A stretch of 62,844 bases of DNA, counting the filler, from Diploschistes diacapsis (lineage: Eukaryota): assembly GCA_023645945.1 (NCBI GenBank). It is 8 parts of 8 records of this genome, joined end to end, with 100 filler letters (N's around TTAATTAATTAA, not from the genome) between each part and the next. Parts side by side here need not be neighbours in the genome. Positions count along the whole stretch, not along the records: positions 24,781 to 49,344 come from JALAIB010000234.1; 7 more parts are not named here. The stretch is one strand, 5' to 3'. Position 1 is the first letter of the stretch; each line of letters begins with the position of its first letter. The notes below the pieces were generated by a model, which was not told the DNA's origin, did no database searches, and saw only the letters and a program-made list of their open reading frames with translations. Below are positions 38,744-39,779 of this stretch, piece by piece. A program made the position numbers and the translations under genes.

Positions 38744-39779
38744 ATGCAGATGTGAGTTGCAGACGCTCTCCGCGACCCACATCCCCCGCGATTTCTACCG
38801 ACTGACCTTGCGACCAGCTTCGTAAAGAGCGGGAGGACGGTGACTCTCGACGTCCAGTCGACTGACACAATCGAAAATGTGAAATCAATGATCCAGGAGA
38901 AGGAGGGCATCCCTTGTGACGAACAACGCCTTGTCTTTGGCGGCAAGCAACTCGAGAATGGCATCTTATCCGACTATAACGTTCAAAAAGTCAGTAAAGA
39001 CCCCAGTATGGAGCGCGCGCGCCATAGAAGAAATTCCGCCCTCGTTAATGACTATAATCCCGGAGCTGACATAACCTCCATATTGGTTCCTTCTTAGTAC
39101 TAACTGGACTGTAGATGGCGACGCTGGACCTCCTCGGAAGGCTACGTGGCGGCATCATTGAGCCCTCCCTAAAAGCGGTACGTTTCTCATTGTGGAGGAA
39201 ACTTCAGAACTCTCGGCCCCCCTTTACCATATATAATGAGACATCCATAATTCTTACACCCTTGCTCACGCTTCTGTACAACCAAGCAAGAATACTGACA
39301 ACCTTATAGTTGGCTAGCAAATTCAACTGCGATAAGCAAATTTGGTACGTTTCGCTTTTCCAAGCGCTCAAGTTTCCTCTCAAAGATGTTCTGGCGGGTT
39401 CATGCACGCGGTAGAGTAGATTTGTCTCAAGAGCCGGTGTGGATTACACTCAGCCGCCGGATGCTAATTAGCCCCGTTTCGATGACTCCGCTCTTTGGCA
39501 AATGCCAACCTGAGCGGCTAATGGGCTGGCTTTTCATAAAGGGTGTCTCTTTTCGGATCCACTTCCACTTACTCATTTCGACCTGTGCTATGAGATATAC
39601 TGACCCTGGCTCGTGATAGTCGCAAATGTTATGCGAGGTTGCCGCCGCGAGCCACGAATTGCCGAAAGCGGAAGTGTGGCCATAGCAATCATTTGCGCCC
39701 CAAGAAGAAGTAGGTTACGCGCATTTAACATATAACGAAAGAGGAAGTTACTGATTCTGACTGTTATAGGCTCAAGTAG
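38744..39779 (+). CDS. RPL40: Ubiquitin-like / 60S ribosomal protein eL40 fusion with a divergent ubiquitin moiety (6 coding exons)
   Basis: Exons 38744-38751, 38818-38989, 39115-39177, 39310-39344, 39620-39709 and 39770-39779, all joined by GT-AG introns, give MQIFVK...[58 protein letters not shown] 5'-UTR intron lies at 38672-38743. Confidence 0.92.

Follow-up and report, generated by a model that had tools for sequence, protein, structure and literature searches.

A gene that fuses a ubiquitin-derived domain to the ribosomal protein eL40 lies at positions 38744-39779, on the plus strand, of a stretch of 62,844 nucleotides (nt) from the assembly GCA_023645945.1 of Diploschistes diacapsis, in the part taken from record JALAIB010000234.1. 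This whole stretch is called the window below. Ubiquitin is almost invariant, and laboratory mutational scans leave the reason for this unexplained. In the gene described here, the ubiquitin half has diverged whereas the eL40 half is conserved, and this inverted conservation is both real and rare. We consider it probable that the gene is functional and that it encodes a selected, putatively cleavable ubiquitin-like (UBL) leader of eL40 that has left the ubiquitin pool.

The ubiquitin half and the eL40 half

Splicing of the exons by their coordinates gives a six-exon gene with a predicted product of 125 amino acids (aa), composed of a 73-aa ubiquitin-derived domain followed by the 52-aa eL40. 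The spliced exons total 378 nt, that is, 125 codons plus a TAG stop, and contain neither an internal stop nor a frameshift. The first 73 residues terminate in Arg-Leu-Arg-Gly-Gly (RLRGG) and are joined to the start of eL40 directly, with no linker, and the cleavage site predicted from this RLRGG motif only falls between positions 39153 and 39154. Exon 2 matches the ubiquitin family of Pfam (PF00240, E=6.2e-15, 55.2 bits for a cut-off of 25.4) and exon 5 matches Ribosomal_L40e (PF01020, E=1.4e-16), which places a ubiquitin-family domain in front of a C-terminal eL40 of 52 aa. Among solved structures, ubiquitin chains score about 75 bits with exon 2, and exon 5 is identical to the best-matching eL40 chains at 27 of 29 positions.

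The reference for alignment was a canonical fungal ubiquitin-eL40 (Ub-eL40) protein read from the uninterrupted frame of a metagenome locus (L008:70-453). In a global alignment with this protein, the ubiquitin half is identical at 52 of 76 positions (68%), with 21 substitutions and three deleted residues, whereas the eL40 half is identical at 49 of 52. Against animal ubiquitin, global alignment gives 51/76. Two of the deleted residues belong to the Leu8 loop (T7 and L8, or L8 and T9, with a T>S change beside the gap) and the third is R54. The other substitutions are K11R, I13V, E16D, E18Q, S20T, D24E, K29M, D32E, P38C, Q40E, I44V and A46G in the first part of the domain, and D52N, T55I, I61V, E64M, S65A, H68D, V70L and L71G in the second. 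The initial annotation had described the same 73-aa moiety, the same five canonical introns and the same intact frame. Working against yeast, it had counted 52/76, 21 substitutions and three deletions in the ubiquitin half and about 47/52 in eL40; our count for the ubiquitin half is exactly the same. The residues that it singled out (the Leu8-loop gap, K11R, K29M, I44V, S65A, H68D, V70L and L71G as changes, K48, K63 and RLRGG as retained) are all present.

Both in-frame deletions lie within exon 2 (the Leu8 loop at about 38828, Arg54 at about 38960). No other splice choice removes them because they are internal to this exon, and alternative splicing that would restore a canonical ubiquitin is therefore ruled out.

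Neither of the two recognition patches of ubiquitin is intact. The Leu8-loop gap, I44V, H68D, V70L and L71G affect the Leu8-Ile44-Val70/His68 and the Ile36-Leu71-Leu8 patches, of which Ile36 is retained. Five of the seven chain-forming lysines are present (K6, K27, K33, K48 and K63; the other two are changed by K11R and K29M), as are R42 and the C-terminal residues R72, L73, R74, G75 and G76, which make up the Arg72-Leu-Arg-Gly-Gly end of ubiquitin. If the hydrophobic core is made up of positions 1, 3, 5, 13, 15, 17, 23, 26, 30, 43, 50, 56, 61, 67 and 69, as we take it to be, the only core changes are I13V and I61V, and the radical changes are at the surface. Taken as a protein sequence, these features support the view that the N-terminal moiety has ceased to be a canonical ubiquitin and that parts of its receptor, deubiquitinase (DUB) and E1 surfaces would be lost with the Leu8 loop, His68 and Leu71.

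This level of divergence has a practical consequence. A published survey discarded domains with less than 80% identity to yeast ubiquitin (PMC8122580). At 68%, the leader is under this line and is not a near-canonical ubiquitin; hence, a gene like the present one would have been missed, and similarity filters of this type will miss such genes in annotation.

Table 1. Exons and introns of the Ub-eL40 gene in window coordinates.
Feature	Position	Strand	Description
Exon 1	38744..38751	+	ATG CAG AT = Met1, Gln2, first two bases of Ile3
Intron 1	38752..38817	+	66 nt, GTGAGT...CAG, branch-like CTGAC
Exon 2	38818..38989	+	product residues 3-60 = ubiquitin positions 3-63
Intron 2	38990..39114	+	125 nt, GTCAGT...TAG, branch-like CTAAC; after the Lys63-equivalent codon
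Exon 3, first part	39115..39153	+	13 C-terminal residues of the ubiquitin-like domain, up to Arg-Leu-Arg-Gly-Gly
Exon 3, second part	39154..39177	+	eL40 residues 1-8
Intron 3	39178..39309	+	132 nt, GTACGT...TAG
Exon 4	39310..39344	+	eL40 residues 9-20, last codon split
Intron 4	39345..39619	+	275 nt, GTACGT...TAG
Exon 5	39620..39709	+	eL40 residues 20-50, four-Cys core
Intron 5	39710..39769	+	60 nt, GTAGGT...TAG
Exon 6	39770..39779	+	eL40 end (Leu-Lys) and TAG stop

The signals of the five predicted introns (Table 1) are of the typical filamentous-ascomycete type. All five end in AG, and each carries a branch-site-like word, CTGAC or CTAAC, 10-20 nt before its 3' end. Upstream of the gene, sequence signals alone delineate a possible 72-nt intron of the 5' untranslated region at 38672-38743 (GTAAGC...TACTGAC...CTAG/ATG), abutting the start codon. 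An antisense open reading frame (ORF) opposite exons 1 and 2 (38499-38990, minus strand, 163 aa from stop to stop) was judged mechanical, being of low complexity and facing an exon supported by Pfam.

Recent constraint and rarity

Independent Logan contigs of a lichen metagenome, X1, hold 132 of 132 sampled words of the stretch, and large parts of it also occur in runs of three other studies, the other sources being a rock metagenome and three coded organisms. The differences in the ubiquitin half are therefore not an assembly artefact. Assembly error, which the initial annotation had left for reads to expose, is ruled out by a sequence that recurs in runs of four studies.

The contigs of the runs from the three other studies were compared with the window over 38500-40000. 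The contig set X2, from a related strain, covers the stretch; every difference is listed for its two long pieces, 13 for 38532-39167 and 10 for 39602-40000. Over these pieces, 21 of 702 non-coding bases differ from the window versus 2 of 333 coding bases (Fisher p=0.012), and indels are confined to non-exon sequence. The two coding changes are synonymous: 39150 C>T (GGC>GGT, Gly), also found in X3, and 39693 T>C (TTG>CTG, Leu). The ubiquitin-like half offers 170.3 non-synonymous sites, at which 5.1 changes would be expected at the non-coding rate and none is observed (Poisson P=0.006); at its synonymous sites the rate (1 of 48.7) is close to the non-coding rate. Exon 2 in X2 is identical to that of the window, as are the parts of it covered by X3 and X4. 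The X3 piece 38897-39180 and the X4 piece 38859-39009, both fully accounted for, show no coding change except the synonymous one at 39150, and exon 4 is unchanged in one X3 contig (record 11). Substitutions and indels of X2, X3 and X5 cluster in intron 2. Thus, within the limits of a test over shallow divergence, the protein sequence of the leader is under recent purifying selection. The initial annotation had called the moiety decayed; this is a wrong description, because no non-synonymous change is seen where 5.1 are expected, and the presumed core holds only the two changes given above.

The rarity of the gene was evaluated on a control set of 65 eL40 loci in metagenome contigs, obtained from a search with the 52-aa eL40 part of the protein P0231. 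The tblastn matches to animal ubiquitin, as high-scoring segment pairs (HSPs), were chained upstream of each eL40, and the chains covered 70 or more of the 76 ubiquitin positions in 45 of the 65 loci; in the remaining 20 the ubiquitin match is absent or partial, from contig ends, stand-alone eL40 or undetected exons. Ubiquitin identities amount to 64-75/76 in 41 of these 45 loci, where the lowest values are undercounts from intron read-through (for example L064 and L063), and to 26-28/76 in the other four. The range 29-63/76 is empty (0/45), and the window gene has 49/76 by the same HSP chaining.

Canonical fungal ubiquitin was found in all eight of the fungal-type loci inspected (L001, L002, L008, L058 and L061-L064). 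By chaining, their eL40 is identical to that of the window at 45-49 of 52 positions, except for L064 (31/52), an undercount in which intron read-through was retained and the last exon lost. These loci bear on the idea that the divergent sequence is simply the ordinary ubiquitin of the organism, present at every ubiquitin locus. In the face of eight canonical fungal-type loci out of eight, we regard this as very improbable. Moreover, ubiquitin differs at only three positions between yeast and human (PMC4862753), and an alteration of the entire ubiquitin system in a member of Pezizomycotina would be without precedent.

The divergent domain was also searched for among proteins, using the stop-to-stop ORF around exon 2 with residues 22-78 scored, against candidates of 62-198 aa in a set of 5.8 billion proteins. 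In this size range, P0206 was the only protein more than 75% identical to the domain; ORF calls from relatives of fewer than 62 aa are outside the range and could be missed. P0206 (85 aa) is the prokaryote-style ORF call of the window itself (38756-39097), corresponding to exon 2 from an internal GTG with read-through of intron 2. It is an artefact in a public protein collection, since the frame of exon 2 continues without a stop through 35 codons of intron 2. Among longer proteins, the matches of exon 2 were swamped by polyubiquitins. A degenerate DNA pattern written for the form with the Leu8-loop deletion gave 0 matches in the JGI metagenome contigs, and a search of the available literature for a divergent Ub-eL40 in lichens or fungi found none.

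Several loci of the control set deserve mention for their own sake. In four loci from AT-rich genomes (L039:573-968, L041:185-574, L042:183-572 and L044:1788-2183), a ubiquitin-like domain with 26-28/76 identities precedes eL40; it ends in Leu/Met-Gly-Gly and is followed by a linker of 3-4 residues. In L043 (~100-306), L046 (~850-1060) and L048 (~2440-2653), eL40 stands behind a leader of 15-20 residues that finishes with Gly-Leu-Met/Ile-Gly-Gly and a short linker, as though only the tail of the ubiquitin-like domain had survived. The locus L012:2501-2656 holds a fungal-type eL40 (46/52 versus that of the window) whose first residue is Met. No ubiquitin match was found within 1300 nt upstream, and this eL40 gene may therefore stand alone. 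Finally, the Ub-eL40 of L036:89-472 has in-frame stops at ubiquitin glutamine positions, as expected of a ciliate-type genetic code.

Descent, host and copy number

Two of the five introns connect the gene to canonical relatives. The intron after ATGCAGAT has the same place and phase in the canonical loci L001, L004, L006 and L061, in which the HSP starts at Phe4 behind ...cag/c, and the intron after Lys63 has a position common to the canonical fungal-type loci L058, L062 and L064. Therefore, the gene descends from an intron-bearing fungal Ub-eL40 gene. An origin as a retrocopy is ruled out by the five introns, two of which are at canonical positions.

The host is a lichen- and rock-associated ascomycete (Pezizomycotina) without a close sequenced and annotated relative. 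The 561-aa exon of PMT4 in the window reaches at most 77-78% identity to named proteins, the top ones belonging to Lecanoromycetes (Toensbergia, Xylographa, Pleopsidium and others). Eurotiomycetes and Dothideomycetes are at 75-76% and metagenome proteins at 87-88%. This lack of close sequenced and annotated relatives is why P0206 alone exceeded 75% in the protein search. Besides PMT4, the window carries genes for CDC20/Fizzy, an SMC protein, 6-phosphogluconolactonase, SLA1, an MFS transporter, a dynein-intermediate-chain-like WD40 protein and ferrochelatase; in content it is a normal housekeeping region of an ascomycete chromosome. The blocks 50001-54000 and 56001-62000 of the window are AT-rich, with a GC content of 0.30-0.33 versus about 0.48 elsewhere, and could be degraded repeats or isochores like those left by repeat-induced point mutation. 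They flank the ferrochelatase gene (54427-55479, minus strand, PF00762, E=2.9e-85).

A number of points weigh against a functional gene with a selected leader. The selection test spans a shallow divergence (about 3% in non-coding sequence) and depends mainly on one contig set, X2. The comparison with X3 alone is not significant (coding 1/213 versus non-coding 10/464, p=0.19), and X2 and X3 are not independent, because they have substitutions in common. Some differences of X3, X4 and X5 are unlisted (13 more), and one X2 difference lies at an unlisted point within 39252-39446, an interval that contains exon 4. For a gene encoding a ribosomal protein, codon use does not stand out (GC3 of 0.67 and 0.63). 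Finally, the searches of eL40 loci and of proteins found no relative with an intermediate form.

The main competitor of this interpretation is that the gene is an extra paralogue beside a canonical Ub-eL40 gene, with a ubiquitin half that diverged under relaxed or altered constraint. Such a copy would be a minor or condition-specific source of eL40, or would be on its way to loss. The lack of a strong codon bias fits this proposal, and a young, lineage-restricted copy would be expected to leave no homologue of the divergent form either among the 5.8 billion proteins, P0206 excepted, or in the JGI metagenome contigs. However, the missing close homologues are also explained by the missing sequenced relatives, as judged from PMT4. 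Furthermore, conservation of the eL40 half matches that of canonical fungal genes (49/52), the splice signals are all intact, and the absence of non-synonymous changes in the UBL half indicates a copy that is not drifting now. To our knowledge, filamentous ascomycetes usually have a single Ub-eL40 gene, which also counts against an additional one. We therefore hold the extra paralogue to be unlikely, though it is the most serious of the alternatives.

Role of the leader and relation to known systems

If the gene is indeed functional and its leader selected, its history and mode of action might be as follows. An ordinary fungal ubiquitin-eL40 precursor gene would have been the ancestor; its ubiquitin half would have left the homogenised pool and become a UBL leader, the eL40 half staying normal. 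The 125-aa precursor would be translated with the UBL aiding, in cis, the folding and expression of the small basic eL40, a role known from yeast Ubi1. Cleavage by a deubiquitinase after the retained Arg-Leu-Arg-Gly-Gly would then free eL40 for the 60S subunit. Having lost the Leu8 loop, His68 and Leu71, the free UBL would probably be a poor substrate or a poor signal in the ubiquitin system. The supply of true ubiquitin would fall to other loci (polyubiquitin, Ub-eS31). In yeast, the ubiquitin moiety of Ubi1 acts in cis to increase the output of eL40, with SUMO as a partial substitute, and ubiquitin must be removed, since the uncleaved precursor disturbs 60S maturation and elongation (PMC8122580).

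Judging from its residues, the leader retains what the job of an eL40 leader would require, namely a compact ubiquitin-type domain and an exact RLRGG junction, and its losses would belong to signalling and enzyme recognition. In the yeast mutational scans, the sensitive positions are Arg42, Ile44, Lys48 and Gly75-76, those sensitive under stress are Leu8, Val70, Leu71, Leu73 and Ile36, and His68 is located at UIM/UBA interfaces (PMC4862753). Of these positions, Arg42, Lys48, Gly75-76, Leu73 and Ile36 are kept in the leader, Ile44 and Val70 are conservatively changed, and Leu8, His68 and Leu71 are lost. None of I44V, V70L, L71G, H68D, K29M and K11R is listed in the three supplementary files of the same paper.

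The retained residues might also suggest that the leader is a new lineage-specific ubiquitin-like modifier, activated after cleavage via its Gly-Gly, conjugated, and provided with readers of its own, which would be compatible with either copy-number scenario. Arg72 is the discriminator between Uba1 and the E1 of NEDD8, and it is kept as part of the whole RLRGG tail, together with Arg42 and five of the seven lysines, including Lys48 and Lys63. Moreover, purifying selection extends over the whole surface, beyond the core and the tail. Against this, the role of leader could by itself account for the constraint, and the loss of the Leu8 loop and of Leu71, both stress-sensitive in the yeast scans (PMC4862753), points to poorer handling by the ubiquitin machinery. 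All in all, a new modifier appears improbable.

The selected, predicted cleavable leader that we favour shares specific features with FUBI, the leader of eS30. Leu71 and Leu8 belong to the Ile36 patch of ubiquitin, which is recognised by blocking loop 1 of USP enzymes; FUBI, in which two residues of the Leu8 loop are deleted and the Ile36 patch is re-made, has to be recognised in another way (PMC10611586). That the leader is altered in the same two elements is the best specific evidence for the analogy with FUBI. As far as the sequence goes, the proposal of the initial annotation, a FUBI-like leader released from ubiquitin function, is partly supported by the 68% identity, the retained RLRGG and the loss of the Leu8 loop, His68 and Leu71, whereas the notion of decay is abandoned. 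A stronger version would make the gene the sole eL40 gene and its leader a FUBI-convergent intermediate (Leu8-loop deletion, Leu71 loss) with a selected function of its own after cleavage, as a modifier or as a partner in eL40 or 60S assembly; we view this as rather doubtful.

The gene belongs to a known kind, that of ubiquitin-like leaders on ribosomal proteins, and is of interest because its leader, in a filamentous fungus, is intermediate in divergence and still resembles ubiquitin. Natural escapes of ubiquitin genes reveal which residues are needed for the job of ribosomal-protein leader alone. The present case is informative in this respect, being at 68% and not saturated like FUBI, with an otherwise canonical eL40 in a filamentous ascomycete. 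That the same structural element was changed as in FUBI (Leu8 loop, Ile36 patch) suggests that departure from the ubiquitin system can follow the same route more than once. Yeast complementation, DUB and E1 assays could also draw on the gene as a variant already provided by nature.

Compared with canonical Ub-eL40 precursors (yeast Ubi1 and Ubi2, human UBA52), the product has the same layout, with one N-terminal ubiquitin-family domain, RLRGG and then eL40 directly; its eL40 matches the canonical fungal one at 49/52 positions, and two of its introns are placed as in canonical loci. Unlike in these precursors, the ubiquitin half is not essentially identical to ubiquitin (52/76), has three deletions and lacks the Leu8 loop, His68 and Leu71.

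FUBI-eS30 (FAU, in holozoans) likewise places a ubiquitin-like leader with a Gly-Gly end in front of a small ribosomal protein, and FUBI is removed by a DUB before subunit maturation (PMC8354635). In both leaders, two residues of the Leu8 loop are deleted and the Ile36/Leu71/Leu8 patch is altered (PMC10611586). However, the partner here is eL40, of the 60S subunit, and not eS30, of the 40S subunit. In addition, the leader is 68% identical to ubiquitin versus 36% for FUBI, and it retains Lys48, Lys63 and the full RLRGG tail. The shortened Leu8 loop and the di-Gly end are a resemblance in design and not a sign of shared UBL ancestry; the leader described here arose independently within fungi.

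In nematodes, the UBL-1 moiety is reportedly divergent from ubiquitin in sequence, as Jones and Candido are said to have described in 1993. Like the present leader, it is a ubiquitin-like moiety placed on one of the two classical ribosomal fusion partners, in this case eS31, encoded together with it by the gene ubl-1 (PMC10556562). Partner and lineage differ from those of the present leader.

Finally, the divergent UBL-eL40 proteins of the AT-rich metagenome loci (L039, L041, L042 and L044) also have a diverged UBL ending in Gly-Gly before eL40. In contrast to the window gene, their UBL is only about 31-37% identical to ubiquitin, a linker of 3-4 residues follows the Gly-Gly, and eL40 is at 34-36/52. 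With respect to these proteins, the gene described here represents an intermediate stage, in a free-living filamentous ascomycete and with a near-canonical eL40.

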